This document shows positions 1,655 to 25,169 of a stretch of DNA of 26,362 nucleotides, piece by piece. The DNA is from a virus (taxonomy: Duplodnaviria; Caudoviricetes): IMG/VR virus record IMGVR_UViG_3300020183_003544, positions 1 to 26,362 of that record. One strand, written 5' to 3'. Below the pieces are notes generated by a model. The model worked only from the letters and a program-made list of their open reading frames with translations, did not search any database and was not told where the DNA came from. The position numbers were made by a program, and so were the translations under genes. Positions within the stretch are counted from its first letter, which is position 1. Each line of letters begins with the position of its first letter.

Positions 1655-1947
1655 TGAAATACATTATTGACATAGACAACACCATATGCTATACTGAGGG
1701 CAGCGATTATCAACACAGTCAACCGGACATGCAACGCATTGAAAAAATTAATCAGTTGTTTGATCAAGGGCATGAAATTCATTATTACACTGCTAGAGGT
1801 GGCAACTCTGGACTTGATTGGAGCCAACTCACTGCACAACAATTAGAACAGTGGGGTGCCAAACATCACAAACTGATTATGGGAAAACCTGTGTATGATG
1901 TTTGGGTAGACGATAGAGCAATCACAGCAAAAGATTTTTTTAAATGA
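1654..1947 (+). CDS. Minimal HAD-superfamily phosphatase (capsule-biosynthesis phosphatase-like, 97 aa)
   Basis: Motif I DIDNT, motif II YTAR, motif III/IV GKP...VDDRA. ATG 1654 is coupled to the upstream stop. Confidence 0.8.
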   Translation: MKYIIDIDNTICYTEGSDYQHSQPDMQRIEKINQLFDQGHEIHYYTARGGNSGLDWSQLTAQQLEQWGAKHHKLIMGKPVYDVWVDDRAITAKDFFK

Positions 1948-3053
1948 GAATAGATCACAACATACATTTGGATTACAGTGATGTGCTGTTAAAACCCAAA
2001 AGAAGCACACTCAGCAGCAGAAGAGATGTGGACATCACCAGAGAATTTAAATTTAGAAACAGCGGACAGTCTGCCAAATTTGTACCCATAGTGGCCAGCA
2101 ACATGGATGGTGTGGGCACATTTGAAATAGCCAAAGTTTTGCAGGAACATCACATGCTGACTGTGCTGAGCAAACACTACGACATTTTGGATTGGGACAG
2201 AGCAATGGGCAAAGGCCTCAAACTGCAGCACGTGAGTGTATGCACAGGCACAGGTGCCATATGGGACAACAATGCCAACGATTATCAAACTCTCAAACAG
2301 GTGTTGCAAAAATATCCAGATGTGAATTTTATTACCATAGACGTGGCCAATGCCTATCATGAACAATTTGTGGATTTCGTTAAAAGAATAAGATCTGAAT
2401 ATCCAGATAAAACCATTATAGCAGGCAACGTGGTGACTCCAGAAATGGTTGAAGAACTAATAATCAATGGAGCAGACATGGTAAAAGTGGGCATAGGACC
2501 AGGTTCTGTGTGCACCACCAGAACACAAACTGGCGTGGGTGTGCCTCAATTTTCTGCAGTGATAGAATGTGCTGATGCTGCCAATGGAGTCGGTGGACAC
2601 ATTATGGCAGACGGTGGATGCACAGCGCCAGGCGATGTGGCCAAAGCATTGGCAGCAGGAGCTCACACAGTGATGTTGGGCGGATTGTTGGCTGGTCATG
2701 ATGAAGGCGGTGGAAAAATTATTGAAGAAAAAGTACAATTAAATAAATTACAGAATCAATCACCACAGATTGAAGTTAAAAAATATATAGAATTTTATGG
2801 CATGAGTTCAGAATCTGCTTTTGAACGTCATGGGGCTCGCAAGGATGGATACAGAGGCACTGAAGGCAAAACAGTGAGATTAGAATACAAAGGCGCAGTT
2901 AAAAACACAGTGGAACAGATATTGGGTGGCGTTAGGAGTACATGCACATACATAGGTGCCAGACGTATCAAAGACATGCCCAAATGTGCACATTTTGTGC
3001 GAGTAAACAATGTGATCAACAGAGTGTTTGATAGCAATGAAGTTAAAGCCTAA
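1944..3053 (+). CDS. guaC: GMP reductase (E. coli GuaC type)
   Basis: DVLLKPKRSTLSSR, NMDGVGTF, IDVANAY, AGNVVT, KVGIGPGSVCTTR (catalytic Cys), DGGC..PGDVAKA, FYGMSS and EGKTV. No CBS domains. Confidence 0.93.
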   Translation: MRIDHNIHLDYSDVLLKPKRSTLSSRRDVDITREFKFRNSGQSAKFVPIVASNMDGVGTFEIAKVLQEHHMLTVLSKHYDILDWDRAMGKGLKLQHVSVCTGTGAIWDNNANDYQTLKQVLQKYPDVNFITIDVANAYHEQFVDFVKRIRSEYPDKTIIAGNVVTPEMVEELIINGADMVKVGIGPGSVCTTRTQTGVGVPQFSAVIECADAANGVGGHIMADGGCTAPGDVAKALAAGAHTVMLGGLLAGHDEGGGKIIEEKVQLNKLQNQSPQIEVKKYIEFYGMSSESAFERHGARKDGYRGTEGKTVRLEYKGAVKNTVEQILGGVRSTCTYIGARRIKDMPKCAHFVRVNNVINRVFDSNEVKA

Positions 3054-5997: not shown

Positions 5998-6537
5998 ATG
6001 GCAACATATGGCATGATAGATTTGGAAACACTGAGCACCAGACCAGATGCTGCTATTTTGACTGTAGGAGCAATAAAGTTCAATCCACACGCAGATGTTG
6101 AACCGCACTCAGGTAGATATTGGAGGTTGAATGTGGACGAACAAACAGCATTGGGCCGTCACGTGGATGAAGGCACACTCACTTGGTGGAATCAGCAACC
6201 AGCAGCAATCAAAGATGAAGCACTGAGTGATCACGATCGCACAAATGTTTTAATTTTTCTCAAAGAGCTAAACAAATGGGCTGTGGGATTAGATCTACTG
6301 TGGTGTCAAGGACCTTTGTTTGACTATCAAATACTGCAAAATTTATATGCTCAGATGCAGACACCAGTGCCTTGGAACTATTGGCAAATTAGGGACAGCA
6401 GAACACTGTTTGACCTGTTGCCAGAAGATCCTAGAAAAAAAATGCAGACAAGTCTACACAATGCGTTGGCTGATTGCTACTATCAAGCCAAATGTGTGCA
6501 ACAAACTTTCAAACAATTAGGAGTTAAAACAAAATGA
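5998..6537 (+). CDS. DEDDh 3'-5' exonuclease (T4 DexA / RNase AS-like)
   Basis: MIDLETL, WCQGPLFD, RDSRT and HNALAD motifs. ATG at 5998. Confidence 0.85.
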   Translation: MATYGMIDLETLSTRPDAAILTVGAIKFNPHADVEPHSGRYWRLNVDEQTALGRHVDEGTLTWWNQQPAAIKDEALSDHDRTNVLIFLKELNKWAVGLDLLWCQGPLFDYQILQNLYAQMQTPVPWNYWQIRDSRTLFDLLPEDPRKKMQTSLHNALADCYYQAKCVQQTFKQLGVKTK

Positions 6538-7325
6538 AAATTTTACTTACTGGCCATAGAGGATTCATAGGCAGCAGATTGATCAGCTATCTTAAATTAC
6601 ATAAAAAAATGCGCAATGGGATATTGTGTAATACTTATTCAGTGACTGGACTGGATATTCAAAACGGAGATGATCTCTTAACTTGTGATCTAAATTATGA
6701 TGTGGATGTGGTGATTCATCTAGCAGGAGTAGCAGCAGTGAGAGACAGTCTACTTGACCCTATAAAATATTGGCAGAACAATGTGATGGCCAGTGAAAGA
6801 ATTTTTAAAAAATTTGCCAGCAAAAGAATCATATATGCCAGCAGCAGTTCAGCAGCTGAGCCTGCACTAAATCCTTATGGATTCAGCAAATATGCTATGG
6901 AGTTGATTGCCCCCAAATCAGCATTGGGTTTGAGATTTACCACTGTGTGGGAGGAAGATGGTAGACCAGACATGTTTATGACCAAACTATTAAATGGTCA
7001 ATTGAAATACATCACTGATCATTCGAGAGATTTCATACATGTGCAAGATGTGGTGGATGTGATTCAAATGCTGTTGCACACTGACCTATCTGGAGTATTG
7101 AATGTGGGCACAGGCATCAGCATGAGTCTCAAATCGCTCACTGATTTGATGAATATAAAAGAAATTGAACAGCGCAAGGGAGAAATTTTTGAAAGACAGG
7201 ATAATTTGGCAGACATAACAAAATTACGGAATTTAGGTTGGCAGCCCAAAGTCAATTTGGTAGAGTATATCAAAAACAAATACAACTTGACTTATAGGGT
7301 TGACCTAAATATAATAAACAAATAG
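6534..7325 (+). CDS. NAD-dependent NDP-sugar epimerase/dehydratase (extended SDR)
   Basis: TGHRGFIG Rossmann motif, VIHLAG, YASSSS, YGFSK (YxxxK), RDFIHVQD and NVGTG. Confidence 0.9.
   Translation: MKILLTGHRGFIGSRLISYLKLHKKMRNGILCNTYSVTGLDIQNGDDLLTCDLNYDVDVVIHLAGVAAVRDSLLDPIKYWQNNVMASERIFKKFASKRIIYASSSSAAEPALNPYGFSKYAMELIAPKSALGLRFTTVWEEDGRPDMFMTKLLNGQLKYITDHSRDFIHVQDVVDVIQMLLHTDLSGVLNVGTGISMSLKSLTDLMNIKEIEQRKGEIFERQDNLADITKLRNLGWQPKVNLVEYIKNKYNLTYRVDLNIINK
7287..7315 (+). promoter_or_regulatory. Sigma70-type promoter with an overlapping late-like CTAAATA
   Basis: TTGACT (7287-7292), 17 nt, TATAAT (7310-7315). CTAAATA at 7305-7311. AGGAG RBS before ATG 7335. Confidence 0.75.
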
Positions 7326-8078: not shown

Positions 8079-9545
8079 ATGCACACTGATTTGACAGCAC
8101 AACAGAAAGACTACGCAGTATTTTTGCCTGCTCTGAGCAGTTTTTATGCCAGTGAATTAGGCAAAGCACTGATGGTAAAAGATTATATTGCTGCCAAACG
8201 TATGCCACAACAATTCAATCACGGGGTAGCAGGTATGAATTATCTTAGTCCCAACAACACTTATTTCTATTACAAGTGGCATTTGTATTCAGCAGGACAT
8301 GCTGACCTAAATATGAATAAGCCATCTGTGCGTGATGAAATAATCAGAAATAGAAATCGCTCTCACAATTTTGTATTGGGCGACTCTGGCGGATTTCAGA
8401 TAGGCAAAGGTGTATGGGAAGGTAATTGGAAAGATGTTAACTGTGTCAAAGCGAAGAAAAAACGAGAGCAAGTGCTTGCATGGATGGATGCTAACATGGA
8501 CTACGGAATGATATTGGATATTCCTGCTTGGGTATCGCGTTCTCCAGAAGGAGCCAAAGCCAGCAATATCAATTCTTATCAGGAAGCTGTGGATGGCACA
8601 AGAATTAACAATGATTATTTTATGAAACATAGAACAGGCAGTTGTAAATTTCTAAACGTATTACAGGGTGAAAACTTCCAGCAGGCAGATGATTGGTATG
8701 ATCAAATGAAAGACTACTGCGATCCAAAAAAATATCCTACAACACATTTTAATGGATGGGCAATGGGAGGACAAAATATGTGTGATGTGCATCTTGTGCT
8801 GAAAAGACTGGTGGCTTTGAGATTTGATGGACTGTTGGAAAAAGGAGTGCATGATTGGATGCATTTTTTAGGCACCAGCAAACTGGAGTGGGCAGTGTTG
8901 TTGACAGACATACAAAGAGCTGTGAGAAAATATCACAATGAAAATTTTACCATATCTTTTGATTGTGCTTCACCTTTTCTAGCCACAGCAAATGGGCAAC
9001 TGTACATAGAAACAGACATCAAAGATAGAGACAAATGGAGTTATAGAATGGCTCCCAGCATTGATGATAAAAAATATGCCACAGACACACGCAAATTTAG
9101 AGACGCTGTGCTGCAGGAAAAAATATTTGATAATTTTGAAGACAGTCCAATCAGTGAAAGATTAACCCTGAAGGACATCACTTGTTATGCGCCAGGTGAT
9201 AAGAACAAAATGGGCAAGGAAGGCAGAACATCTTGGGATAGTTTCAGTTATGCTTTGCAGATGGCTCACAATGTTTGGACACACATTTTTGCTGTGCAGG
9301 AGGCAAATAGAAAATATGATCAAGGACTGAAGCCTGCTATGTTGGTAGAAGAAAAGTTTGACAAAACTGAATTCAAACACATTGTTGAAGCAGTATTTTC
9401 CACTGACAGTAGAGACACTGCTGAAGCAGTGATTGAAGAATACAGTAGATTCTGGATGAGCATAATTGGCACTAGAGGAGCCACTGGTAAAAAAACGGTG
9501 AATGCCAGCACACAATTTTCTAACTTGTTTGAGGAGGTACAATGA
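8079..9545 (+). CDS. dpdA: TGT-fold base-exchange transglycosylase, DpdA-like (likely inserts a 7-deazaguanine into DNA)
   Basis: DSGGFQ, MILDIP, LNVLQG, GWAMGG, HFLG and SFDCASP are TGT-barrel motifs. No CxCxxC zinc site of tRNA TGTs. Clustered with folE and queE. Confidence 0.75.
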   Translation: MHTDLTAQQKDYAVFLPALSSFYASELGKALMVKDYIAAKRMPQQFNHGVAGMNYLSPNNTYFYYKWHLYSAGHADLNMNKPSVRDEIIRNRNRSHNFVLGDSGGFQIGKGVWEGNWKDVNCVKAKKKREQVLAWMDANMDYGMILDIPAWVSRSPEGAKASNINSYQEAVDGTRINNDYFMKHRTGSCKFLNVLQGENFQQADDWYDQMKDYCDPKKYPTTHFNGWAMGGQNMCDVHLVLKRLVALRFDGLLEKGVHDWMHFLGTSKLEWAVLLTDIQRAVRKYHNENFTISFDCASPFLATANGQLYIETDIKDRDKWSYRMAPSIDDKKYATDTRKFRDAVLQEKIFDNFEDSPISERLTLKDITCYAPGDKNKMGKEGRTSWDSFSYALQMAHNVWTHIFAVQEANRKYDQGLKPAMLVEEKFDKTEFKHIVEAVFSTDSRDTAEAVIEEYSRFWMSIIGTRGATGKKTVNASTQFSNLFEEVQ

Positions 9546-9736
9546 GTAAAAAAAATAAAAGTCTAAAAAAATTAGAAAGAGAATTTGATTATTATCATAG
9601 AAAGACAGCGGAGATGGAACAGGAACGTGACTATGATAGAAGTTGGGAAAGCAAGGTATTGTTGAAAAATTACAAAAAGATTAAACTGGCGCTTAAAACA
9701 CAGATAGAAGAATATAAAAAACAATTGGATATATGA
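9542..9736 (+). CDS. Small charged coiled-coil protein (64 aa)
   Basis: ATGA overlaps at both ends. GAGGAGG RBS. Helical-hairpin pattern. Confidence 0.7.
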   Translation: MSKKNKSLKKLEREFDYYHRKTAEMEQERDYDRSWESKVLLKNYKKIKLALKTQIEEYKKQLDI

Positions 9737-10617
9737 AAACATTAGTAATTGGTTTAGGCATAGGAAGGTTGTATGAAAAGGCACTGACCAAACTGGGTCA
9801 CAAAGTGTTCACAATGGATCCAGATCAGAGCAAACAGGCCACGTTCACCAGTCTTTCCACTGCGGTGTATGCACATCCTAAATTGGATGCTGTTTTTATC
9901 TGCACTCCAAACAGCACACACGACAGCATAGCACAACTGATGGCAAAACACAGCAGGATTGTGTTTGTGGAAAAACCAGGGGTGATGAACAGCCAGCGCT
10001 GGAAAGGTTTGAAAGCTGGTTATCCTAATGTGAGATTTATGATGTGTAAAAATAACATGTGGAGGAGCTACAATGAAGAATTTAGATTGCGCACACAGGC
10101 AGCTGATTTGATCAAGATCAATTGGATCAATGAAAACAGAGTGCCTTCTCCTGGTGGATGGTTCACAAATAAGAAATTAGCTTTTGGTGGAGTCAGCAAG
10201 GACTTGATGCCGCATCTCTTGAGCATATTCATTGGTTTGAATCCAAACACATATGAAGATTTTACTGTGACCAAAAATACAAAAACACAAAGGTGGCAAT
10301 TGCAAGATGTTTTAAACACGCAATATGGCACTGTGAATCAAGAGGGTGTGTATGATGTGGATGATTTTGCTGAAATTACTTTGACTGATGGCAACAAAAC
10401 TTATGAACTCACAGCAGATTGGCGCAGCAAACAAATCACAGACATTGGCATACATTGTTATCAAAGAGGAGAGCGAGTGAAAAGTTTTGATCTCGGACTT
10501 TGTCCAGAAGCAGCATATGAACAAATGATTAAAGATGTGTTCACACAGGTGGACAATGAAGACTTTTGGCAAAAACAGTTTAATTATGATGTGTGGATAC
10601 ATGAAAGGACTGCATGA
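9733..10617 (+). CDS. Gfo/Idh/MocA-family NAD(P)-dependent oxidoreductase
   Basis: VIGLGIG, ICTPNSTH, VFVEKP and GGVSKDLMPH (DxxxH). Confidence 0.88.
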   Translation: MKTLVIGLGIGRLYEKALTKLGHKVFTMDPDQSKQATFTSLSTAVYAHPKLDAVFICTPNSTHDSIAQLMAKHSRIVFVEKPGVMNSQRWKGLKAGYPNVRFMMCKNNMWRSYNEEFRLRTQAADLIKINWINENRVPSPGGWFTNKKLAFGGVSKDLMPHLLSIFIGLNPNTYEDFTVTKNTKTQRWQLQDVLNTQYGTVNQEGVYDVDDFAEITLTDGNKTYELTADWRSKQITDIGIHCYQRGERVKSFDLGLCPEAAYEQMIKDVFTQVDNEDFWQKQFNYDVWIHERTA

Positions 10618-11525
10618 TGAAAACTAAAATTTTATGCACATATGGTGATGGAAAATTTCATGAAACCATGATAGAAATACCTCCCATAGAAAGTACAGAA
10701 ATACAAGTACAAAACATTATGACTGGTATCTGTAGAAGTGATATTGATATGATGTTGGGCAATTTTAAACTGTTGCCATTGCACATGCAAGGTCATGAAG
10801 GATTGGCACAAGTCACAGCAATAGGTGACAAAGTCACAGACATATCTGTGGGAGACGTTGTGGCAACTAGAGGTGAACCTGCATATGCTGATGTTTACAA
10901 TTGCAAACACAACACATACGTGAAAGTGCCTGCAGCTGATCCTAAATATATTGTGGAACCTGTGGCATGTGCAATCAATTGTGTGAAACAATTTGAAACT
11001 CAGATAAGACACAAACTGCACAACAAGGTGAAATGTTTGATCATAGGCAGTGGGTTTCTGGCATCTGTGCTGTACAAGTATATGAAACATAAAAATTTAC
11101 AGTCAGACATCACTGTGTTGGGCAACAGTAATCAAGAATTCTGGGGAGAAAAACTCACACAAAAATTAGAAGGTCGTTTTGATCTAGTGTTTGATCTCAA
11201 CACACGCAATGAAATGTTTGAGGGAGATCATTTCAATGCAGAAGCGTTCTATGTTGTGGCTGCTGAAAAAGAACATGCAATCAACAGCAAATTAGGCAAT
11301 CTTTTGTGGCATGCTGTCACTGTGGGTTTTCCTAGTCCAAGAAATAAAAAATTTATAGAGTGCATGCGTGAAGCAGTAATGTTGATTGAAACAGGAGTAA
11401 TTGATGTGGCACAGTTTTGGAGTAAAGGCTATAACAGGCACAAAGAATGGCAGAAGGCGTTTGCTGACAGTGTACAGAGACGTCCAGGATTCAACAGAGC
11501 TTATATAGATTGGAGACAACAATGA
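10614..11525 (+). CDS. Zinc-dependent medium-chain (polyol/sugar) dehydrogenase
   Basis: GICRSD, GHEG, VGDVV, EPVAC and IIGSGFLA. Lacks the 4-Cys structural zinc loop. Confidence 0.85.
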   Translation: MMKTKILCTYGDGKFHETMIEIPPIESTEIQVQNIMTGICRSDIDMMLGNFKLLPLHMQGHEGLAQVTAIGDKVTDISVGDVVATRGEPAYADVYNCKHNTYVKVPAADPKYIVEPVACAINCVKQFETQIRHKLHNKVKCLIIGSGFLASVLYKYMKHKNLQSDITVLGNSNQEFWGEKLTQKLEGRFDLVFDLNTRNEMFEGDHFNAEAFYVVAAEKEHAINSKLGNLLWHAVTVGFPSPRNKKFIECMREAVMLIETGVIDVAQFWSKGYNRHKEWQKAFADSVQRRPGFNRAYIDWRQQ

Positions 11526-12043
11526 TTTTAAACACAGACAAAAGAAAAAAAATTAAATTTTTTGTGGGTAAAGAGATTGAAAATACACAAATGAAAGGCA
11601 AGATGACACTGTTTGTGGTGGGACTGCAATCAGTACCTGACATCATTAGATATGCCAATAGAACACATGTGGAACACATCTATTTGGGAACCAGTCAAAG
11701 TTTCAATCCAGAAAATGAATCGGACTGGCAAGATTGGAACAATCTCATACACAATCTACTGCACAGCGGACTCACAGTGACATTAGATTATGATGTAAAA
11801 TATGCACATGAAATCAGCAAAAAATCTTGGATCAAGCAGAATAATTTTATCAGTATGATTTCGGTAAAATTGCCCAACATTGAACTTTTGAAAAATTCAA
11901 CTATCAAACTGGATGATATCACTTGGGGAGCCACCAACACTGGAGTTTGGACACATAATTTGGCTGAACTGATGCAAAAAGAACAGTACACAGACTGGAG
12001 TGATTACAAAGGTGATTTTGAAGTCAAAGTTGACAATGAATGA
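11522..12043 (+). CDS. Hypothetical protein within the deazaguanine cluster (173 aa)
   Basis: ATGA-coupled to the MDR gene. Alpha/beta pattern (TLFVVG, HIYLGTSQSF, IKLDD, TNTGVW). Confidence 0.75.
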   Translation: MILNTDKRKKIKFFVGKEIENTQMKGKMTLFVVGLQSVPDIIRYANRTHVEHIYLGTSQSFNPENESDWQDWNNLIHNLLHSGLTVTLDYDVKYAHEISKKSWIKQNNFISMISVKLPNIELLKNSTIKLDDITWGATNTGVWTHNLAELMQKEQYTDWSDYKGDFEVKVDNE

Positions 12044-12058
12044 AAATATTGCTATAAT
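12030..12058 (+). promoter_or_regulatory. Consensus sigma70 promoter with extended -10
   Basis: TTGACA (12030-12035), 17 nt, TATAAT (12053-12058), with TG at 12050-12051. Confidence 0.88.
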
Positions 12059-12073
12059 AAAAGCCTTTAATTT

Positions 12074-12475
12074 ATGAACAAGAATGTGAAATCTAAAATA
12101 TGGGTGACTTTCCAAAAAGAAGGCATACACAAATATCCTGCTGCACTGACTGACCCCAAATTGGCCACGGGTGATGAATATGATGTGAGTTTTTTAGGAT
12201 ATCCTCACAGACACATGTTTCATTTTCGTGTGGCAATTGAAGTGTTTCACGATGACAGAGAAATAGAATTCATACAATTCAAACGTTGGCTGCTAAAACA
12301 TTATCAGGAAAAAATATTAAATTTAGATTATAAAAGTTGTGAAATGATGGCCACTGAACTGCACGCTAAAATCAGTGAACGATATCCCAATAGAGAAATC
12401 ATCATTGACGTGAGTGAAGATGGTGAAAATGGAGCCTGCATTACATTTGAAGCTGATGCAGTCACATTGAATTAG
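12074..12475 (+). CDS. dpdL: QueD-paralog T-fold protein, DpdL-like (putative CDG decarboxylase)
   Basis: EGIH...LGYPHRHMF keeps three metal-binding His but has Leu in place of the Cys of QueD CxxxHGH. SCEMMA and VSEDGENG match T-fold C-terminal elements. Confidence 0.6.
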   Translation: MNKNVKSKIWVTFQKEGIHKYPAALTDPKLATGDEYDVSFLGYPHRHMFHFRVAIEVFHDDREIEFIQFKRWLLKHYQEKILNLDYKSCEMMATELHAKISERYPNREIIIDVSEDGENGACITFEADAVTLN

Positions 12476-12483
12476 GAGCAAAT

Positions 12484-13533
12484 ATGACCATATATGTGGT
12501 TGATCTGGAAGAAGTAGAAACAAGATACACTAAACAGTGGAAAAAGCATCTGCCTCTGCAGTTGAAGAAACATTGTGGTAAGACTGTGCAGGTGATCAGT
12601 GGAGGTGACAGTGTGAAATCAGCTTCACCAGGTGCTTTTTTGAATTTTGGATACACCAACGTGTACAAAGCCAAACAGATACAAAAGATAGCTGAACTGT
12701 TTAGCCGTAATGAAATCAAGTCTGGTGACTATTTCCTATACACTGATGCATGGAATCCCACAGTACTGCAATTGAAATACATGGCAGAGCTGCTGAATAT
12801 CAAGATCAAAATAGGGGGCATGTGGCATGCAGGTTCTTATGATCCTCAAGATTTCTTAGGTAGATTGATAGGCGACAAGCCTTGGGTAAGACAGTCTGAG
12901 ATAGCCATGTTCAATGCGTTTGATCATAATTTTTTTGCTACTGAGTTTCACATAGAGCTCTTTTTACAGAGTTTTCCTCAGGCAGAAAAAAATAAAATGT
13001 ACAGAGTGGGCTGGCCTATGGAATATCTAGATGATGATCTTACCACATACAAGAATATTACCAAAGAAAACATCATATTGTTTCCACACAGACTGGCTCC
13101 AGAAAAACAGCATGACATTTTTATGGATCTTAGCAAAGAGTTACCCAAATACAGTTTTATCACATGTCTTGATGTGTGTCAAAACAAAAATGATTATCAT
13201 AATTTACTGGCAAAAGCAAAAATAATATTCAGTGCTAATCTCCAAGAAACGTTAGGCATCAGTTGGTATGAAGGTTGTGTGTTGGGAGTGATTCCTATGA
13301 TACCAAATAGATTGAGCTACAAAGAAATGGCTTTGAGCAACTTCAAATATCCCAGCGAATGGACATTGACCAAAGAAGGTTATTTCAAACACAAAGAATT
13401 GATCAAATCAGTCATAGTGGACTATATTGAAAATTACAAAAAACATGCGCCCATGATATGGAAGCAGAAATTAGAATTAGAACATAAATTTTTCAGTGGC
13501 ACACTGTTGTACAAGGTGATTCAAAATGTCTGA
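12484..13533 (+). CDS. GT-B fold glycosyltransferase (GT4-like)
   Basis: FPHRLAPEKQ and ANLQETLGISWYEG (E-x7-E nucleotide-sugar binding). AGGAG RBS. Confidence 0.82.
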   Translation: MTIYVVDLEEVETRYTKQWKKHLPLQLKKHCGKTVQVISGGDSVKSASPGAFLNFGYTNVYKAKQIQKIAELFSRNEIKSGDYFLYTDAWNPTVLQLKYMAELLNIKIKIGGMWHAGSYDPQDFLGRLIGDKPWVRQSEIAMFNAFDHNFFATEFHIELFLQSFPQAEKNKMYRVGWPMEYLDDDLTTYKNITKENIILFPHRLAPEKQHDIFMDLSKELPKYSFITCLDVCQNKNDYHNLLAKAKIIFSANLQETLGISWYEGCVLGVIPMIPNRLSYKEMALSNFKYPSEWTLTKEGYFKHKELIKSVIVDYIENYKKHAPMIWKQKLELEHKFFSGTLLYKVIQNV

Positions 13534-13873
13534 TGAGTCCCAAACTTTTACTGCACCACTGGATATAAACGTAGGCACTACCACTTGGAGTGCAAATGTG
13601 TCTGGATTAGGCACAAGCAGCATCACAGTGCCCTACACCAATCAAGTGAACCTGTCCGGCGGCACAATTGATTTCGAAGCAGACGCTATGAAGGGCGTGC
13701 ATTTTGCAGATTATCAATTGCCTCAATTGTGGGTGGACATACTGCCTAGTGTACACAAGATCAAAGAAATGTGCGAACTGTATCCGAGCTTTGAAAAAGT
13801 TTTTGAAAAGTTTAAAACACTTTATGAAATATGTGTAGATGACTATGAATCCAGAAACAAAAATAATCAATAA
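13526..13873 (+). CDS. Hypothetical protein (115 aa)
   Basis: Overlaps both neighbours. Ser/Thr-rich N-terminus and helical C-terminus. Confidence 0.7.
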   Translation: MSDESQTFTAPLDINVGTTTWSANVSGLGTSSITVPYTNQVNLSGGTIDFEADAMKGVHFADYQLPQLWVDILPSVHKIKEMCELYPSFEKVFEKFKTLYEICVDDYESRNKNNQ

Positions 13874-14312
13874 GAACTACTTCACTCACATACAGATGCG
13901 CCAAGCACTGGAGAACATTATGCAACAGATTTCTCAAAGTGATCAAATGCCACAAATAGTTTTGGGCATCAATCGAGGTGGCTGCATACCAGGCATTTAC
14001 CTTTCACACAGACTTAATGTGCCACACGTGACATTGAATGTAGCTCTTAGGGATCACAACATTAAACCTGATCTTTCAGCGCTGGAAAAAGCATATGCTT
14101 GGCAGAAAAAAATATTAGTTGTTGATGATATCAATGACACAGGATCGACTTTTAACTACATTTTAGAAAATTTTGGCAAACCTGACCGTCTGAAGTTTGG
14201 TGTTTTGCTGCATAATATACACAGTGAATGTCAACAATTGGATTACAAAGGTTACGACATAGACAAGGTCAAAGATCCGCGCTGGATAGTGTTTCCTTGG
14301 GAGCAATGGTGA
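13839..14312 (+). CDS. Type I phosphoribosyltransferase (xanthine/guanine PRT, Gpt-like)
   Basis: LGINRGG, PRPP-binding ILVVDDINDTGST and C-terminal WIVFPWE. Start is 13839 or 13845. Confidence 0.87.
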   Translation: MTMNPETKIINKNYFTHIQMRQALENIMQQISQSDQMPQIVLGINRGGCIPGIYLSHRLNVPHVTLNVALRDHNIKPDLSALEKAYAWQKKILVVDDINDTGSTFNYILENFGKPDRLKFGVLLHNIHSECQQLDYKGYDIDKVKDPRWIVFPWEQW

Positions 14313-14692
14313 TGAAAGAAGACACTTTGCAAAAAGCTCAGCAGGAGGGCAGAGCACCATGGTCCAAAATACTGTTTGAGTTGAAAGACTGTGTGTGGTT
14401 TGAAGATGGTTATCCGGTGACCCCGGGGCATTCATTGATAGTGCCCAGAGTGGTAAATCAAAAAAATCTAATGAAATGTTTTGATTTGGCACTGAAGGTG
14501 GCCAATGAAAACATACAGAAAGGCACCTGCGATGGCTATAATATTGGCATAAACATGGGCACAGCAGCAGGGCAGACATGCATGTATCCGCATGTGCATC
14601 TGATTCCACGACGCAAAGGAGATTGTGAAAATCCCAAAGGCGGAGTGAGACATGTGATACCCGGCAAAGGAGATTACACTGCACATGAGTAG
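14312..14692 (+). CDS. HIT-family nucleotide hydrolase
   Basis: DGYPVTPGHSLIVP, GYNIGIN.G.AAGQT and YPHVHLIPRR. TGATG-coupled start with GGGAG RBS. Confidence 0.88.
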   Translation: MKEDTLQKAQQEGRAPWSKILFELKDCVWFEDGYPVTPGHSLIVPRVVNQKNLMKCFDLALKVANENIQKGTCDGYNIGINMGTAAGQTCMYPHVHLIPRRKGDCENPKGGVRHVIPGKGDYTAHE

Positions 14693-15542
14693 AAGTTTGT
14701 TCATAGGTGACAGTCATGTGTGTGGGTATGTGACCAAACCCAATCAAGTGGGCCCGGGCAGTTATGATTTATGGCAGGACAACAACTATGCTGAATTATA
14801 CAGCATAGAAAACAACAATCGTCCTACAGTGGTGTATGCAATGCCAGGCACCACCAACAGTGCCTACACAGATTGGATCTATGCCATGTTGAAAAAATAC
14901 AATGATATAGATGAAATTTTTGTGTTGATGAGTGCTTTCAATAGATTTATGTTGGCTTTTGATGGCAGTTTGTCTACGGATTCCATACCAGTAGATTATT
15001 TCACCAAGCAATTATTTTTTACATCTTCTGGCACATGGAGACACGCTGGCAAACACAATGTAGATATCTACGTGGATCTCACCACTAAAGGTGATAAATT
15101 TCAATTGTTCAACAAGCCCACACAGGATGACTATAAAAATTTTGTAGGCATCAGCTACACAGATGAAAAAGGATTGATGATTCCGGACCTGCGCAAACAC
15201 ACATATATGCAGGTAAAAATGTTTTTTGAAATGAACACACATTTGGAACAGAGAGAATTTTACAAAAACATATACATTTGGAACAGTCTGTGTGAAAAAA
15301 GAAATATCAAATGCTATCTTTTCAACATGAGAGAAAGGCAAAAATTACCTAACAATTACAACTACTATGGTGAACTGAACCACACTGTTATATCTTCTAT
15401 GTCCATAGAAGAGTATTTCAAATCAGAAAATATTGATCACAACAAGTATTTTATTAGTGATCAAGAACATTACAACAAAGAATATCACCAGTTGATTGCA
15501 ACTAAATTTATACCATGGCTAAAAAATCAAAAATCCTCATAG
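14685..15542 (+). CDS. SGNH/GDSL-like hydrolase or acyltransferase (285 aa)
   Basis: N-terminal FIGDSH and C-terminal DQEH (DxxH). Confidence 0.65.
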   Translation: MSRSLFIGDSHVCGYVTKPNQVGPGSYDLWQDNNYAELYSIENNNRPTVVYAMPGTTNSAYTDWIYAMLKKYNDIDEIFVLMSAFNRFMLAFDGSLSTDSIPVDYFTKQLFFTSSGTWRHAGKHNVDIYVDLTTKGDKFQLFNKPTQDDYKNFVGISYTDEKGLMIPDLRKHTYMQVKMFFEMNTHLEQREFYKNIYIWNSLCEKRNIKCYLFNMRERQKLPNNYNYYGELNHTVISSMSIEEYFKSENIDHNKYFISDQEHYNKEYHQLIATKFIPWLKNQKSS

Positions 15543-16108
15543 CAGGCGATAGTTTTGCCTGCGATTGGCCCAACAGCAATGTTGGTTGGCCCACTCTGTT
15601 GAAAGAAAAATTTGAAGTGACCAACGTGGCACAAGCAGGCGTGGGAGAATATAAAATATTGCAACAGATTAGACAGCAGGATATGTCATTGTACAATGCC
15701 GTAATTGTGTGTCACACCAGTGTGAGCAGAGTACACACCAGACATCATCCCATACACACCACAGGACTGCACAAAGACTGTGATCTCATCTACACAGACA
15801 TTGCAGCCAAAAGTGATTGGTTCAATCCCGCACTGAAAGCTGCCAAAAATTGGTTCAAGCATCACTATGATGACCAGTATCAAAAACACATCTACAGCCT
15901 GTTGAGACAGGAGATCAATCGTTTGATCACTGTGCCTTATTTGGCTGTGGATCATTTTGTTGATGCTGCATTTTGGTCTATAGAGAAACACAAGATGGAA
16001 TGTTTTGCACTGTGGCCTAAATACAGAGGTGATGTGAATCATTACACAGAGGAGGGTAACCAAAAACTACTGTTGGAAATAATTGACAAACTGGAGCATA
16101 TCTGTTAA
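15515..16108 (+). CDS. SGNH/GDSL-like hydrolase or acyltransferase (197 aa)
   Basis: IAGDSF, NVAQAG (block II) and C-terminal DVNH (DxxH). Confidence 0.7.
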   Translation: MAKKSKILIAGDSFACDWPNSNVGWPTLLKEKFEVTNVAQAGVGEYKILQQIRQQDMSLYNAVIVCHTSVSRVHTRHHPIHTTGLHKDCDLIYTDIAAKSDWFNPALKAAKNWFKHHYDDQYQKHIYSLLRQEINRLITVPYLAVDHFVDAAFWSIEKHKMECFALWPKYRGDVNHYTEEGNQKLLLEIIDKLEHIC

Positions 16109-16111
16109 AAT
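16083..16111 (+). promoter_or_regulatory. Sigma70-type promoter upstream of folE
   Basis: TTGACA (16083-16088), 17 nt, TAAAAT (16106-16111), with extended TG at 16103-16104. Confidence 0.8.
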
Positions 16112-16131
16112 AACAGGGTATAAACATTACT

Positions 16132-16818
16132 ATGAAAGTATCTGAAAAGATCAAACAAAGATTGACTGCGGCTGGAGCTAAATTTCATGCCAATGACAAC
16201 ATTGCAGCACACATAGAGCAGGGAGAACTGCCATTGTTAGAACAAGAATTGGCTCAGTCTTTCGCATCAGTGTTGAACAGTCTTGTGATTGACACAGATA
16301 ATGATCCCAACAGCAAAAACACTGCCAAGCGATTGGCCAAAATGTATCTCACAGAGTTAATGAGTGGTAGATATGAATCGAGACCAGATGCCACTGCGTT
16401 CCCCAATGTGGGTGAACACGCCTACACAGGAATGCTGGTGATACGTTCTGAATTAAAATCTGTGTGCAGTCATCACCATCAACCAGTAAATGGTGTGGCA
16501 TACATTGGCATCATACCCAACGGTCAAGTGATAGGATTGAGCAAATACACAAGAATAGCACAATGGTGTGCTAGGAGAGGCACACTGCAGGAGGCACTGT
16601 GCAACAGCATCGCTGACGAAATACAAAAAGCCACTGGGGCTAAAGATTTAGGAGTGTACATACAGGCCACACATGGCTGTTGCGAAAATAGAGGCATAAT
16701 GGCACACAGTTCACTCACACAAACCACTGTGTTAAAAGGAGCTTTCAAAGATGATGTTGGTACTAAAAAAGAATTCATGGACAATATTAATTTGCAACAA
16801 CAATTTGCACCAAGATAG
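16132..16818 (+). CDS. folE: GTP cyclohydrolase I (type IA)
   Basis: TAKRLAKMY, SVCSHHHQP, GLSKYTRI, LQE and HGCCENRG. Confidence 0.95.
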   Translation: MKVSEKIKQRLTAAGAKFHANDNIAAHIEQGELPLLEQELAQSFASVLNSLVIDTDNDPNSKNTAKRLAKMYLTELMSGRYESRPDATAFPNVGEHAYTGMLVIRSELKSVCSHHHQPVNGVAYIGIIPNGQVIGLSKYTRIAQWCARRGTLQEALCNSIADEIQKATGAKDLGVYIQATHGCCENRGIMAHSSLTQTTVLKGAFKDDVGTKKEFMDNINLQQQFAPR

Positions 16819-16827
16819 GAGACACAT

Positions 16828-17031
16828 ATGAATAAAGATGGACCATTCTACGCAGCATTTGAAGGTGATACAACCGGAGTAATCAAACAGGAACTGATCA
16901 CATACAAGGTAAAAAATGGTATGTTGATTAAAGAAATAGTGAATAGAGATTATCAAGATTCAGGTAATGATTACACTGATTCGTCCACAATAATACCATT
17001 GAGAGAAATAAAAAATGAAAGCACAACCTAA
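16828..17031 (+). CDS. Hypothetical protein (67 aa)
   Basis: AGGAG RBS with ATG directly after folE. Confidence 0.7.
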   Translation: MNKDGPFYAAFEGDTTGVIKQELITYKVKNGMLIKEIVNRDYQDSGNDYTDSSTIIPLREIKNESTT

Positions 17032-17182
17032 ATCTATCAGCAACGGACATTTTTATATTTCATTGGTAAAAAGTGGAATAAGAATTATAGCAGGTATCAG
17101 TCTAGTGTTTGGCATGTTTGTGTGGGCCGGTGCTCTGTTTATCACAGCTGAACTGTTGGGAGTGTTAGAAGAACTGGTATAA
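17015..17182 (+). CDS. Small membrane protein (55 aa, not in ORF track)
   Basis: MKAQPKSISNGHFYISLVKSGIRIIAGISLVFGMFVWAGALFITAELLGVLEELV*. Fills the gap, and its TAA overlaps the queE ATG (TAATG). Confidence 0.75.
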   Translation: MKAQPKSISNGHFYISLVKSGIRIIAGISLVFGMFVWAGALFITAELLGVLEELV

Positions 17183-18036
17183 TGAGCAAGATCAAAGTGG
17201 CAGAATTGTTTTACAGCATACAGGGTGAAGGCCGATACATGGGTGTGCCCAGTGTGTTCTTGAGAACTTTCGGCTGTAATTTCACCTGTGCTGGATTCGG
17301 CATGCCCAAAGGTGAACGCAGCACACAGAATGATTTGGTGCACAGAGACATAGACAAATTTAAAACTTACAATGAACTGCCTTTGGTGGACACAGGTTGT
17401 GACAGCTATGCTTCTTGGGATCCAAGATTCAAACATTTGTCACCACTGCTGCAATCAGATGTCATAGCTGAAAGAACAATGGCTTTATTGCCCAACAATC
17501 GTTGGCAGGATGAACATTTCATATTCACAGGTGGTGAACCATTGCTGGGATGGCAGAAGAGCTATCCAGATCTTTTGGAACATGAACACATGCAGCCGCT
17601 GAAAGAAATCACATTTGAAACTAATGGCACTCAATCTCTACACAAAGATTTCAAAGATTATCTCATAAAATGGAGTAACAAAAATGGAAGAACTAGAGAG
17701 TCTATTACATTTTCTGTCAGTGCTAAATTGAGTGTGAGTGGTGAAAAGAGAGAAGACGCAATCAAACCTGATGTGATTGCTGAATACCAATCAGTGGGAC
17801 ACGCATATTTGAAATATGTGGTGGCCAATATTGATGATGTGCATGAAGCTGTTGAGGTCACAGATATGTATAGAAAAAAAGGATTCAATGGCTCAGTGTA
17901 TCTAATGCCAGTGGGCGGAGTAGAAAATGTGTACTACATGAACAATCGCGCAGTGGCTCAGATGGCAATGAAGATGGGTTACAGATACAGTGACAGATTG
18001 CAGGTGCCATTGTTTAAAAATGCATGGGGAACATAG
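17182..18036 (+). CDS. queE: 7-carboxy-7-deazaguanine synthase (radical SAM)
   Basis: ELFYSIQGEG, VFLRTFGCNFTC...GCDS, FTGGEP, FETNGT, SAKL, YLMP and RLQ. Near folE. Confidence 0.9.
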   Translation: MSKIKVAELFYSIQGEGRYMGVPSVFLRTFGCNFTCAGFGMPKGERSTQNDLVHRDIDKFKTYNELPLVDTGCDSYASWDPRFKHLSPLLQSDVIAERTMALLPNNRWQDEHFIFTGGEPLLGWQKSYPDLLEHEHMQPLKEITFETNGTQSLHKDFKDYLIKWSNKNGRTRESITFSVSAKLSVSGEKREDAIKPDVIAEYQSVGHAYLKYVVANIDDVHEAVEVTDMYRKKGFNGSVYLMPVGGVENVYYMNNRAVAQMAMKMGYRYSDRLQVPLFKNAWGT

Positions 18037-19412: not shown

Positions 19413-19918
19413 CAGTGGTAGCAAAACCCATATTGGAAGGTAAATTCTGGATAGTGGAATCCAATGGCGAAAAATTAGGCACTTTGTGCAGACAGGACGA
19501 TCATAGATACATGTTCAGTTGTGCCACAGGCACCAGAATGTTTGATAATGAGCAACAACTCAAGCAGGAATTCAAGAATGATTGGCTGTGGGGCACCACT
19601 GGACACTTGGCCACAGCAGAAATAGTGGACAAGAATGTGGTGTATGGATATCCCACAAGATTTGAACCATGCAATCCTATATTCGATGTCAAAAAACAAT
19701 TGCCATTGTTCACCAAGAGTAAAAAATCAAGATCTTTATACTGTGCTGGCTACTACATAATCAAGTTTGAAAAAGGTTGGGTCAAGAGCTACTGCCCCAA
19801 ATTGGTCACCATAGAAAGATATCCCAACAAAGGCCCGTTCAAAACTGTGTTGGAAATGCGACAGGAATTGAGCAGTGCCAACAAACAGGAGACTTACAAC
19901 AATGACACAACCAATTAA
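19409..19918 (+). CDS. Hypothetical protein (169 aa)
   Basis: ATGA-coupled to rnh. GGGAG RBS. Confidence 0.8.
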   Translation: MTVVAKPILEGKFWIVESNGEKLGTLCRQDDHRYMFSCATGTRMFDNEQQLKQEFKNDWLWGTTGHLATAEIVDKNVVYGYPTRFEPCNPIFDVKKQLPLFTKSKKSRSLYCAGYYIIKFEKGWVKSYCPKLVTIERYPNKGPFKTVLEMRQELSSANKQETYNNDTTN

Positions 19919-20129
19919 CACAGCGCCGCTGCAGCAGCTGATACAGCAGATCAAAGCAGCAGATCAAAGTCAACAAAAAGAGATCAGATTGGATATTCAA
20001 TCTGCAAAAAGCGTGGCCTACACCTTAGGCATTGTGATGAGCAGATTAGCAGGTGATTATGAACAATTGCTGGCTAAAAAAGACAAAGAAGACACCATAC
20101 AAATACAAATGGATGGTGGCAAACTGTGA
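19902..20129 (+). CDS. Hypothetical protein (75 aa)
   Basis: ATG 19902 with AGGAG at 19887-19891. Confidence 0.75.
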   Translation: MTQPINTAPLQQLIQQIKAADQSQQKEIRLDIQSAKSVAYTLGIVMSRLAGDYEQLLAKKDKEDTIQIQMDGGKL

Positions 20130-20323
20130 TTACTGACAAAGAAATTGAACAGTTGGCATCAACAAATCTGCCCGACAATAACTTCAATCCATATGCTGCA
20201 GCACCAGACATTTTTGGTGAAAATCTACAACAATATCAAATAGACATCAAAGTTGCACTTTTTTATCCTGTGTGTATGTGGGCCTTAGCAGCCACTATTA
20301 TTGCCCTTGTATTGGCTTTATAA
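20126..20323 (+). CDS. Small protein with a C-terminal TM helix (65 aa)
   Basis: GTGA overlap with the upstream stop. Hydrophobic C-terminus. Confidence 0.6.
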   Translation: MITDKEIEQLASTNLPDNNFNPYAAAPDIFGENLQQYQIDIKVALFYPVCMWALAATIIALVLAL

Positions 20324-20358
20324 TTGATTTAAACACTATTTTTTTTGGTACAAGACAG

Positions 20359-20365
20359 ATAAATA
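20359..20365 (+). promoter_or_regulatory. T4-type late promoter core (ATAAATA)
   Basis: Intergenic GATAAATA, no -35 element, about 30 nt upstream of ATG 20397. Confidence 0.55.
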
Positions 20366-20396
20366 TATGTGTATAACTCACACATGCAAGGAAAAT

Positions 20397-20687
20397 ATGA
20401 GTAGACCCAAACCAGTAGTTCTTTTGGAAAATGTAAACAAGAAAGACTACAAAGCAGAACAGATTTTGGAAGCAGAAGCCATCTGGGCAGTGTTTTACAA
20501 GGACAAGCCTTTCAATTTGAAATCGTCCAACGTGACCACCAACTATCCAGGGCCCAAGTACAAAAAAGTATCCTTCAGCAATCCAGGTCATGCATTTAAC
20601 CTTGCTAAGAAATTGAACACTCTATTCAATGTGCAGGATTTTTCGGTGGTCAAGCTGAACAAGGGCGAGACTGTGACTGAAAAATAA
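20397..20687 (+). CDS. Hypothetical basic protein (96 aa)
   Basis: ATG 20397 with AAGGA RBS. Begins MSRPKP. TAATG-coupled to the next gene. Confidence 0.8.
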   Translation: MSRPKPVVLLENVNKKDYKAEQILEAEAIWAVFYKDKPFNLKSSNVTTNYPGPKYKKVSFSNPGHAFNLAKKLNTLFNVQDFSVVKLNKGETVTEK

Positions 20688-21076
20688 TGGACTGGAAAAG
20701 CACCTACACTAAAATATTTCTCACACAAGCTAACATATCTGTCACTGACAATTCATTGGCGGAATATATGCCAAAATGGTGGCGTAGTGCCAAATCCAAA
20801 CAGCATGGTGGATTGAGGTTGTCTGAAGAAGGCCTTAAATTTATCACAGACAAACTGGACATGCAAACCTATGATGTGCCTTTTCCACAAGATTTCACTA
20901 TCACCACTCAGGTCATATTGTTTCTAGATAAATTCATTGATTGCCCTTATTATGTGGCAGCAGATGGAATCATAGTTACCAATGAAAAAAAAGCCATAGA
21001 ATTGCACTTGTTTTCAGGTGATATAAGAAAGTATGGACTGGTGAAAGCCATGCAAAGACCTTTCACACAGGAGTGA
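20687..21076 (+). CDS. Hypothetical protein (129 aa)
   Basis: Translationally coupled ORF. Confidence 0.8.
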   Translation: MDWKSTYTKIFLTQANISVTDNSLAEYMPKWWRSAKSKQHGGLRLSEEGLKFITDKLDMQTYDVPFPQDFTITTQVILFLDKFIDCPYYVAADGIIVTNEKKAIELHLFSGDIRKYGLVKAMQRPFTQE

Positions 21077-23575: not shown

Positions 23576-23860
23576 ATGCTGCAGAAAACAGGTGAACCAA
23601 ATCCACATAATTTTTTTGGTACTAGACGAACCAAAAAGTGTCTGCCTCATTTCAAAATAATTGAAATCAAATTTGATTACTCTGTGGAAGAAAAAGTCAG
23701 CAGATGGATCTACAACAATCTCAAGAGTAGATTTTTTATTGGCAAAGTGCTGGTGAACACAGAAGAAAAACGAGCAGAGTACGCAATAAAAATTGGTTTC
23801 GAAGATCCAAAAGAAGTCACAATATTCAGTTTGAGTTGCCCACACATACTACGAAGTTAA
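23576..23860 (+). CDS. Hypothetical protein (94 aa)
   Basis: ATG immediately after the upstream TAG. GAGGA RBS. Confidence 0.75.
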   Translation: MLQKTGEPNPHNFFGTRRTKKCLPHFKIIEIKFDYSVEEKVSRWIYNNLKSRFFIGKVLVNTEEKRAEYAIKIGFEDPKEVTIFSLSCPHILRS

Positions 23861-23894
23861 ATAATTTCGTATATACAAACAAGGAGTAACTCTA

Positions 23895-24203
23895 ATGACA
23901 ATCGAAAATAAAAATCCTGCAGCGAATCCTACTGCAACCACTAGTATGGTCATGCCAAAAGCAGCCACACCACCAGCTGGTGCAGCCAGTGATCTCACTG
24001 TGCAGGATCTTAACACAATCAAAGCCATCATAGATGTGGCATCACAAAGGGGCGCTTTCAAGGCAGGCGAAATGCAGGCTGTGGGCACCACCTACAACAA
24101 ATTGGAAGCATTTCTCAATGCTATTCAAGCACAGCAGGCAGCAGCAGCCAAAACCACTGGTCCCGCAGCAACCACTGCAGGAAGTGAGAATAAAAATGTC
24201 TGA
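23895..24203 (+). CDS. Hypothetical protein (102 aa) with Ala/Thr/Pro-rich termini
   Basis: AAGGAG RBS. Core LTVQDL..IIDVASQRGAFKAGEM..VG..YNKL. Confidence 0.8.
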   Translation: MTIENKNPAANPTATTSMVMPKAATPPAGAASDLTVQDLNTIKAIIDVASQRGAFKAGEMQAVGTTYNKLEAFLNAIQAQQAAAAKTTGPAATTAGSENKNV

Positions 24204-24783
24204 AGTCAAACATTTGGGCCGATTCAAACACAACAAAGAAGTGGTGGGAGTGGTGTATAGAGTGCTGCCCAGTGATCCAGAATACGCATTGGTGGTACCC
24301 ACCAGTGAATTGGACACAGACGAGCATACAAGATTGATGGACCTGATACACAGCTCTGCCAGTCAAAGTTCGTATGAATTGGCCGAAGCCATGGCCCGTA
24401 CCTCACTGGGTGATGGTTCCATCATGCTGGCTAGATTTCATGTGAAAGGATTGATGAAAAAAGTCAAAGCCAACGAAATAGAAATGACTCCCAATCCAGT
24501 CACCAACATCAGTTTGGATGCTTTAAATGCTGCCATAGCTCAGCAAAAAGGTTTAAAAATTGCTGAACTGGCCATCACTGCTGACAAAGAAACTCCAGCC
24601 AATTCACAAGCAAAACGCATAGTGAATCCAGTGCTGGAATCATTGAAGAACGAAACTGTGATGACTGATGATCAGCTGGCAGCCAAATTGAGAAGTGATG
24701 CTGACAGACTGTACAAGGAAGCTGCTAGATTGAGAAAACAAGCGGACGAGCTCAAAGCAAAATCAAAAGAATCTACAGAATAG
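24196..24783 (+). CDS. Hypothetical protein with a C-terminal coiled coil (195 aa)
   Basis: ATG 24196 overlaps the upstream gene end. Begins MSEVKHLGR. Confidence 0.8.
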   Translation: MSEVKHLGRFKHNKEVVGVVYRVLPSDPEYALVVPTSELDTDEHTRLMDLIHSSASQSSYELAEAMARTSLGDGSIMLARFHVKGLMKKVKANEIEMTPNPVTNISLDALNAAIAQQKGLKIAELAITADKETPANSQAKRIVNPVLESLKNETVMTDDQLAAKLRSDADRLYKEAARLRKQADELKAKSKESTE

Positions 24784-24791
24784 GCTCAGTT

Positions 24792-25106: not shown

Positions 25107-25138
25107 AGATCAAACGGTTTGCATTGCTAGTAGTCAGC

Positions 25139-25145
25139 ATAAATA
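25139..25145 (+). promoter_or_regulatory. T4-type late promoter core (ATAAATA)
   Basis: Intergenic CATAAATAC about 25 nt upstream of a virion structural gene. Confidence 0.65.
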
Positions 25146-25169
25146 CATTGTAATTTACACAAGAAACAT

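Follow-up and report, generated by a model that had tools for sequence, protein, structure and literature searches.

A GT4-like glycosyltransferase linked to the QueC-less DpdL gene set is a candidate for capping 7-deazaguanine in phage DNA

Results

Gene content of the cluster

The IMG/VR record IMGVR_UViG_3300020183_003544 is a 26 kb fragment (26,362 nucleotides) of an uncultured jumbo phage, and the whole record is the window analysed here. It holds a cluster of 7-deazaguanine DNA-modification genes interleaved with a gene for a glycosyltransferase (GT), and an earlier note on this DNA had proposed that the GT may add a sugar to the base inserted by the system. The open reading frames (ORFs) named in that note all lie on the plus strand where it had placed them; however, it overlooked a conserved ORF of 174 amino acids (aa) within the cluster, which we call o177. 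The core and near-core genes are:

8079..9545, + strand: long DpdA-type guanine transglycosylase, 488 aa, core (orthology, motifs, profile)
11519..12043, + strand: conserved protein o177, 174 aa, near-core partner of the GT (synteny counts)
12074..12475, + strand: DpdL, a QueD paralogue and proposed 7-carboxy-7-deazaguanine (CDG) decarboxylase, core (LGYPHRHMF motif)
12484..13533, + strand: GT-B glycosyltransferase, GT4-like, 349 aa, core (structure model, motifs)
16132..16818, + strand: FolE, GTP cyclohydrolase I, core (PF01227, E 1.7e-40)
17182..18036, + strand: QueE, CDG synthase, core (phrog_2076, E 6.9e-52)

The cluster is flanked by a family B polymerase, a probable clamp, an RNase H-like nuclease and a MoxR/VWA pair. 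Relatives with the same gene order are 316–344 kb long at 91–99% completeness, and for the first gene, dpdA, the nearest relatives in culture are those of the Pseudomonas Wroclawviruses Paride, PA5oct and MIJ3. Our family scan of the window (Pfam, PHROGs) covered 30 ORFs, leaving out 19875–21076, 23576–26360 and a few small ORFs. Pfam upheld the earlier labels of the Gfo/Idh/MocA oxidoreductase, the medium-chain dehydrogenase/reductase (MDR), the phosphoribosyltransferase (PRT), the HIT hydrolase, FolE and the radical SAM protein, and PHROGs upheld QueE, which the NCBIfam QueE models match only below cut-off. None of the 30 ORFs matched QueC, QueF or ArcS, in agreement with the earlier reading, and a canonical QueD was not found within the window. 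QueD is encoded elsewhere in the genome of more complete relatives (G004, G005, G006 and PA5oct), and was not found in four incomplete contigs (10–72% completeness).

DpdL carries the signature LxxxHRHxF and the conserved pocket residues H19, H45, H47, R62, E65, S88, E90 and E115, and is 58% identical to the PA5oct gene listed as DpdL and 32% to that of phiST. Among relatives, DpdL co-occurs with DpdA, FolE, QueE and QueD, without QueC: we found QueC in none of 264 DpdL loci and in none of the GT-bearing phage records examined for it. Weak QueC matches were rejected, as their motifs are those of what we take to be NAD synthetases. The QueC-less set was already known: Cui 2023 (PMC10516641) had described a class with FolE, QueD, QueE and DpdL, PA5oct and ACP17 included, and proposed that DpdL decarboxylates free CDG to 7-deazaguanine. 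In PA5oct and ACP17 the GT is the gene between dpdA and dpdL that the table of Cui 2023 leaves unlisted, and the string "glycosyl" does not occur in the main text of that paper.

The transglycosylase is nearer to DpdA2 than to short DpdA3

The window DpdA contains DSGG, HFLG and DCAS motifs, invariant across 39 relatives, which we take to be the DSGG, H-x-x-G and nucleophile aspartate marks of the tRNA-guanine transglycosylase (TGT) superfamily. The earlier call of a DpdA-like TGT-fold gene is backed by these motifs and by a PA5oct orthologue; the protein matched nothing in Pfam, PHROGs, NCBIfam or PDB sequences, and a PDB sequence search with its profile gave nothing significant. The orthologue, QCG76197.1 (36% identity), is entered as DpdA3 in table DS1 of Cui 2023, where the PA5oct orthologues of the window's genes stand (PMC10516641). 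However, the long DpdA profile matches DpdA2 (probability 96.8, E 2.4e-10) far better than the short, phiST-type DpdA3 (probability 14.9, E 0.0018), and the types differ in motif (DSGG versus DNG). We therefore do not class the long DpdA with phiST-type DpdA3.

The window resembles the phiST system (PMC10516641) in having FolE, QueE, DpdL, a TGT-like DpdA and, by way of its relatives, QueD, all without QueC. In contrast, phiST has a 259-aa short DpdA3 adjoining a kinase, full replacement of dG by 7-deaza-2'-deoxyguanosine (dDG) as measured, and no GT anywhere in its genome, whereas the window has a 488-aa, DpdA2-like enzyme together with the GT and o177. Short DpdA3 adjoins nucleotide kinases, DUF3310, dCTP-deaminase-like proteins or a dGTP diphosphohydrolase in 21/30 loci versus 0/185 long-DpdA loci, a contrast that is partly circular as the neighbour models were built from short-DpdA3 neighbours. 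Such neighbours occur in L071–L076, L175, L186, L203 and L286, and in L203 the kinase is fused to DpdL. This context hints at full G replacement at the nucleotide level, contrary to the published account in which every insertion follows replication. The split between loci with the GT and those with short DpdA3 also suggests that DpdL phages may take one of two routes, partial insertion with capping or full replacement linked to nucleotide-pool enzymes.

The glycosyltransferase has a predicted GT-B fold

The GT matches PF00534 only below cut-off (E 1.5e-4), and a PDB sequence search with its profile found nothing significant. Its predicted structure (predicted local distance difference test, pLDDT, 86.5) is a two-domain GT-B fold that aligns with BshA (Z 23.1, root-mean-square deviation (rmsd) 3.3, 306 residues aligned) and with T4 alpha-glucosyltransferase (alpha-GT) in a structure bound to abasic DNA (Z 18.7, rmsd 4.2, 304 aligned). 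Residues H115, R203/K208 and E255-x7-E263 presumably represent the His, R...K and E-x7-E motifs of GT4-like retaining GT-B enzymes; the first Glu is Asp in a type-B subgroup. We estimate about 3,900 matching stretches in IMG/VR. In most of the clade, though not in the window, an ORF of 60–90 aa lies between dpdL and the GT (L031:12752–12970 and relatives).

Could the GT act on a small pathway molecule, such as free 7-deazaguanine, CDG or a pterin, with the glycoside serving as a sink, store or secreted metabolite and the DNA carrying plain dDG or its 7-carboxy form (dCDG)? The best structural matches are indeed small-molecule GT4 enzymes, among them a tetrahydrobiopterin glucosyltransferase, and DpdL is modelled as accepting the free base only. 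There is also a precedent in huimycin, where HuiG glycosylates a free deazapurine at N2, and in the huimycin/dapiramicin clusters a glycosyltransferase lies with FolE, QueD and QueE (PMC7439116). However, huimycin is a free metabolite whose synthesis by way of preQ0 uses QueC and a methyltransferase but no DpdA (PMC7439116), and the known deazapurine metabolite clusters lack nucleic-acid insertion enzymes; we rejected a cluster of that type for the window, which does not fit this pattern. Moreover, short-DpdA3 phages make the same free intermediates yet have the GT in 0/30 loci, and in Paride and ACP17 the GT reading frame overlaps that of dpdA. A small-molecule acceptor is thus unlikely in our view.

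The glycosyltransferase is linked to DpdL in phages and some bacteria

We surveyed 50,697 phage records and found the GT in 23, DpdL in 29 and both in 18. The shared records fall into six groups of differing gene order, and in all six examined the two genes lie within about 3 kb: dpdA-GT-dpdL in Wroclawviruses, where the GT gene of Paride is Paride_0116, dpdA2-GT-dpdL in ACP17, dpdL-GT in Phosso (its dpdA 170 kb off), and further arrangements in BUDD/X1, BCSR5 and BUCT-ZZ01. Eleven DpdL records lack the GT; six of seven representatives carry short DpdA3 and one (Roos) another DpdA type.

DpdL loci were then compared by DpdA type (264 loci, reduced to 139 at 90% DpdL identity, of which 104 extend 3 kb or more in each direction). 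In this two-sided, dereplicated set the GT is present in 72/72 long-DpdA, 8/9 DpdA2 and 0/10 short-DpdA3 loci, in 3/3 and 1/1 loci of other DpdA types, and in 5/9 with no DpdA seen. Dereplicated loci that were not GT-anchored, with at least 3 kb downstream, gave 45/45 for long DpdA, 4/5 for DpdA2 and 0/13 for short DpdA3, with 3/3 and 2/2 for other types and 5/9 with no DpdA seen. Conversely, DpdL is present in 79 of the 80 GT-anchored loci (67 of which reach dpdA and 61 folE), and the exception starts about 150 bases before the GT. Frequent loss or unlinking of the GT in relatives, which the earlier note had named as evidence against its proposal, was not seen; the GT is kept in every long-DpdA locus of the two-sided set. 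In a DpdL tree of 69 rows, drawn from 125 by randomly thinning the large clade, the GT label changes nine times, six of them forced by supported branches, and GT-less short-DpdA3 rows are scattered among GT rows. The alignment is short, 34/66 branches are open, and row L205, whose branch length is abnormal, should not be relied on. Taken together, gene co-occurrence shows that the GT is coupled to DpdL.

GT presence tracks DpdA type as much as DpdL, which would suit a GT-fold protein that aids insertion and leaves no sugar on the base, for example one that binds or caps flipped or abasic sites or that glycosylates DpdA or DpdL, with partial dDG as the product; the abasic DNA in the matched T4 alpha-GT structure could be read likewise. 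However, the GT is found alongside four or more divergent types of DpdA, a spread that would be odd for a dedicated protein partner, and sugar-nucleotide enzymes come after it in many loci. In addition, Vibrio phage 2.275.O has a long DpdA beside QueC, QueF and a weak amidoligase match, with neither GT nor DpdL, and so the GT follows DpdL plus a DpdA2-like inserter rather than the inserter alone. We rate this role as rather improbable. The 2.275.O locus itself (L064:14908–20986) encodes the long DpdA and a 370-aa weak-amidoligase protein, then QueF, YhhQ, QueC and a glutaminase, and is a candidate for acylated preQ1 in DNA.

The survey also took in 36 genome contigs, many of them probably mis-binned phage. 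In Magnetospirillum, contigs of up to 1.4 Mb carry a GT-dpdL-dpdA-queD module among bacterial genes. The GT thus travels with the deazaguanine gene set in unrelated phages and in some bacteria. The bacterial module (L269–L272 and L287 in Magnetospirillum, and L274) has a CoiA-like nuclease gene just upstream in L269 and a YhhQ-type transporter in L274, and is a possible modification-restriction system. Methanoperedens-type loci have DpdL and a methyltransferase and no GT. There, L278 and L280 (L280:2800–8400) hold queD-queE-folE, two terpene-cyclase/linalool-dehydratase-like genes, dpdL and the methyltransferase, without DpdA or GT, an archaeal operon that might make a prenylated deazapurine metabolite.

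Other acceptors for the sugar

We searched for enzymes that would supply another base acceptor. No dCMP/dUMP hydroxymethylase (PF00303) was found in 14 GT-positive genomes or contigs, several of them incomplete, whereas the T4 gp42 control was found; the only PF00303 matches were full-length ThyA-like genes, in 3/14. C5-methyltransferases (PF00145) were found in 0/5, with the control positive in 9/14. A TET/JBP dioxygenase search also gave 0/5, and here the positive control was likewise blank. The earlier note had named hydroxymethylpyrimidines as a possible target of the GT, and no supply of them appeared.

These results bear on whether the GT is a mere neighbour unrelated to guanine, with a hydroxymethylpyrimidine, a virion protein or the host surface as its target. 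In favour of this, PhiXhv-12 has a distant homologue in a glycan-like cluster that lacks DpdL, CpG is scarce in the window (rho 0.37), and the TET search had no working control. On the other hand, the DpdL linkage outlasts changes of gene order, DpdA type and host, neither hydroxymethylase nor C5-methyltransferase was found with controls positive, and the GT-positive Paride and ACP17 have CpG rho of 1.0 and 1.03. We rejected CpG depletion as a sign of a cytosine acceptor, as it does not track the GT and no C5-methyltransferase accompanies it. An unrelated GT is thus very improbable. Across the whole window (1–26362) CpG and TpA (0.59) are strongly depleted and CpA/TpG are in excess; the depletion is shared by an 86% relative and not by Paride.

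o177 is a near-constant partner of the glycosyltransferase

o177 occurs in 66/67 GT loci that reach dpdA and in 0/30 short-DpdA3 loci. Its only occurrences in cultured phages are in ACP17, where it precedes dpdA2, and in Wroclawviruses, where 28 kb separates it from the GT; a distant form (E 4.4e-4) stands directly before the GT in BUDD, BCSR5, L170 and L250. Its predicted structure (pLDDT 87.1), compared with 48,161 chains, matched three QueE structures among the top nine (Z 6.1–6.3, rmsd 2.9–3.9, 100–121 residues aligned), tied with unrelated folds, and Foldseek scored the QueE fold at E 0.11 and TM 0.39, with no match of any kind under E 0.001. The N-terminus of the BUDD-type form resembles the QGEG stretch of QueE (E 9e-4 over 15 columns, the best of 14 profiles, in that subgroup only); with the main o177 profile, the GT and the clamp scored about as well as QueE. 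The radical-SAM motif CxxxCxxC is present in 0/73 o177 sequences. As a lead only, o177 might be a QueE-like paralogue without the Fe-S cluster. Two other identities were rejected, a piece of the DpdA barrel (by profile comparison) and MupG_N (ESM Atlas, 0.82, a chance-level score). In Phosso, the "glycosylase" before dpdL gave no match to o177 models. In L067:7374–8523, L068:7137–8504 and L250, PAPS-reductase-like and PIG-L deacetylase-like genes precede o177-GT, possibly for amino-sugar tailoring.

Promoters and accessory genes

The remaining features of the region are:

6534..7325, + strand: NAD-dependent nucleotide-sugar epimerase, accessory, upstream of the cluster (PF01370, E 3.4e-20)
9733..10617, + strand: Gfo/Idh/MocA oxidoreductase, accessory (PF01408, E 8.4e-9)
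10614..11525, + strand: Zn-type MDR dehydrogenase, accessory, usually with Gfo (PF08240 (ADH_N), E 4e-9)
12030..12058, + strand: sigma-70 consensus promoter, 12/12, extended -10, before dpdL-GT (consensus match only)
13839..14312, + strand: purine PRT, Gpt-like, frequent neighbour (PF00156, E 1.7e-11)
14309..14692, + strand: HIT hydrolase, frequent neighbour (PF01230, E 2e-11)
14685..15542, + strand: SGNH-like protein 1, accessory (motifs only)
15515..16108, + strand: SGNH-like protein 2, accessory (motifs only)
16083..16111, + strand: sigma-70 consensus promoter, 11/12, before folE (consensus match)

The perfect promoter match at 12030–12058 is the only one in the window, the 32 weak promoter-like sites being equal to chance, and it would make the GT the second gene behind the promoter of the QueD paralogue, as first described. 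The sugar-redox and SGNH genes, in contrast, proved not to be integral: Gfo and MDR are present in 9/67 GT loci reaching dpdA (MDR, with CxSD and GHE motifs, in 9/80 GT-anchored loci), and SGNH1 in 24/61 and, downstream of the GT, SGNH2 in 8/61 of those reaching folE. All are absent from the Paride, ACP17, BUDD and BCSR5 loci, and we rejected them as core genes. The two SGNH calls retain their GDS and DxxH motifs but have no Pfam, PHROGs or NCBIfam match. PRT (NF006613 below cut-off) is found in 55/61 loci reaching folE and also beside short-DpdA3 clusters, and HIT in 45/61.

The epimerase, kept in many though not all relatives, is a possible source of sugar donor. In other lineages the genes near the GT are an epimerase or dehydratase, UDP-glucose dehydrogenase, ManC, a second GT, or the PAPS-reductase-like and PIG-L pair, a diversity that fits a sugar that varies. 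Two GTs flank dpdA2-dpdL in the cultured cyanophage BUCT-ZZ01 (L070:6001–10158; L246), where a disaccharide cap is possible. Within the window, an IMPDH/GMP-reductase family gene (1944–3053) upstream of the polymerase could shift guanine nucleotide pools.

Discussion

We think it probable that phages with this gene set carry a sugar-bearing 7-deazaguanine in their DNA and that the GT adds the sugar to the inserted base, likely at C7. In the established pathway CDG is the product of FolE, QueD and QueE, with QueD encoded at another place in the genome of complete relatives, and DpdL would decarboxylate free CDG to 7-deazaguanine, as proposed in print. Long DpdA would insert this base after replication at a subset of sites, and the GT would use a nucleotide-sugar to glycosylate the base within DNA, in the manner of T4 alpha-GT on 5-hydroxymethylcytosine, placing the sugar at the vacated C7 or on a handle there. 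We favour C7 because the GT was found only where DpdL is and in no case with QueC, and an acceptor at N2 would be available on preQ0 too. o177 would help the transfer step, while Gfo, MDR, the epimerases and the SGNH proteins would vary the sugar among sub-lineages. The earlier placement of the GT in a deazaguanine system therefore held, in that the linkage is kept and no hydroxymethylpyrimidine supply was found; glycosylation of the base is what we infer from gene content.

The proposed system has parallels in phage biology. It is like T4 alpha-GT in its GT-B fold and a similar LQ...E...P stretch, and the likeness would extend to counter-defence by adding a sugar cap to a modified base after replication; unlike the T4 case, there is no significant sequence similarity, the genomes yielded no hydroxymethylase and the acceptor would be a purine. 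To our knowledge, the sugar caps described on phage DNA bases are all on pyrimidines, and no purine case turned up in the literature searched. Nor did that search, which left most subscription papers outside, turn up a characterised glycosylated deazaguanine in DNA, in line with the earlier note. DpdM and DpdN, tailoring enzymes beside dpdA, also decorate an inserted deazaguanine (dPreQ1), but they put a methyl or formyl group on the preQ1 amine and need QueC and QueF (PMC10516641).

Some published data bear directly on GT-positive phages. PA5oct DNA resists 5/10 restriction enzymes, which its authors read as modified G in GA/GG (PMC12191111), and these data point to a modification that would be motif-limited. 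That paper lists ApaLI (GTGCAC) as blocked on PA5oct DNA, though its site lacks both GA and GG (PMC12191111, section 8). Searches by term in the papers on MIJ3 (PMC6892783) and Paride (PMC10761892) turned up no mention of DNA modification. A cap would probably serve to block restriction enzymes and to shield the deazaguanine from glycosylases directed at it. Dag glycosylases cleave 7-deazaguanine DNA (10.1101/2025.10.29.685425), and enzymes of that type are a plausible selective pressure for a cap.

Several points weigh against a sugar on the inserted base. BshA, sucrose-phosphate synthase and a pterin glucosyltransferase (5zer, Z 20.0) outscore T4 alpha-GT as structural matches, the GT profile gives nothing significant against T4 alpha- or beta-GT, and the modelled fold cannot by itself name the acceptor. 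Chemically, 7-deazaguanine has no C7 hydroxyl, and C-glycosylation by retaining GT4 enzymes is unusual. The long-DpdA rows come mostly from one syntenic clade, so the weight of the linkage rests on the mixed cases. One DpdA2-DpdL lineage lacks the GT (L176–L178, on a contig 12% complete), and in five Xanthomonas/Erwinia phage records a 24% GT homologue occurs with no DpdL match. In PhiXhv-12, the one such record examined, the neighbours of that homologue include GlmS and a deacetylase. Neither Phosso nor BUCT-ZZ01 gave a match to o177. E. coli with dpdA and dpdL alone made no dDG, and DpdL activity failed, although the authors allow that enzymes yet unknown may be needed for dDG formation (PMC10516641). 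The lack of the GT and o177 in that experiment may account for the failure. END nucleases still restrict PA5oct, and a cap would therefore not hide the DNA from every sensor. Finally, the literature searched yielded no mass spectrum or nucleoside chemistry for any GT-positive phage.

A bolder form of the sugar-capping proposal, which we hold to be possible but, as a whole, doubtful, is a widespread phage and bacterial system for a C7 C-glycoside or C7-linked glycoside, in which DpdL frees C7, the GT4-like enzyme adds a sugar that varies by lineage, and o177 helps as a cluster-less QueE paralogue. This would be the first sugar-capped purine in DNA, already present in Paride, PA5oct and ACP17. 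The module is found in Paride and PA5oct, phages of therapeutic interest, where a modified G has been noted. If the proposal is true, glycosylated deazaguanine would be both a new DNA base and the product of new transferase chemistry.

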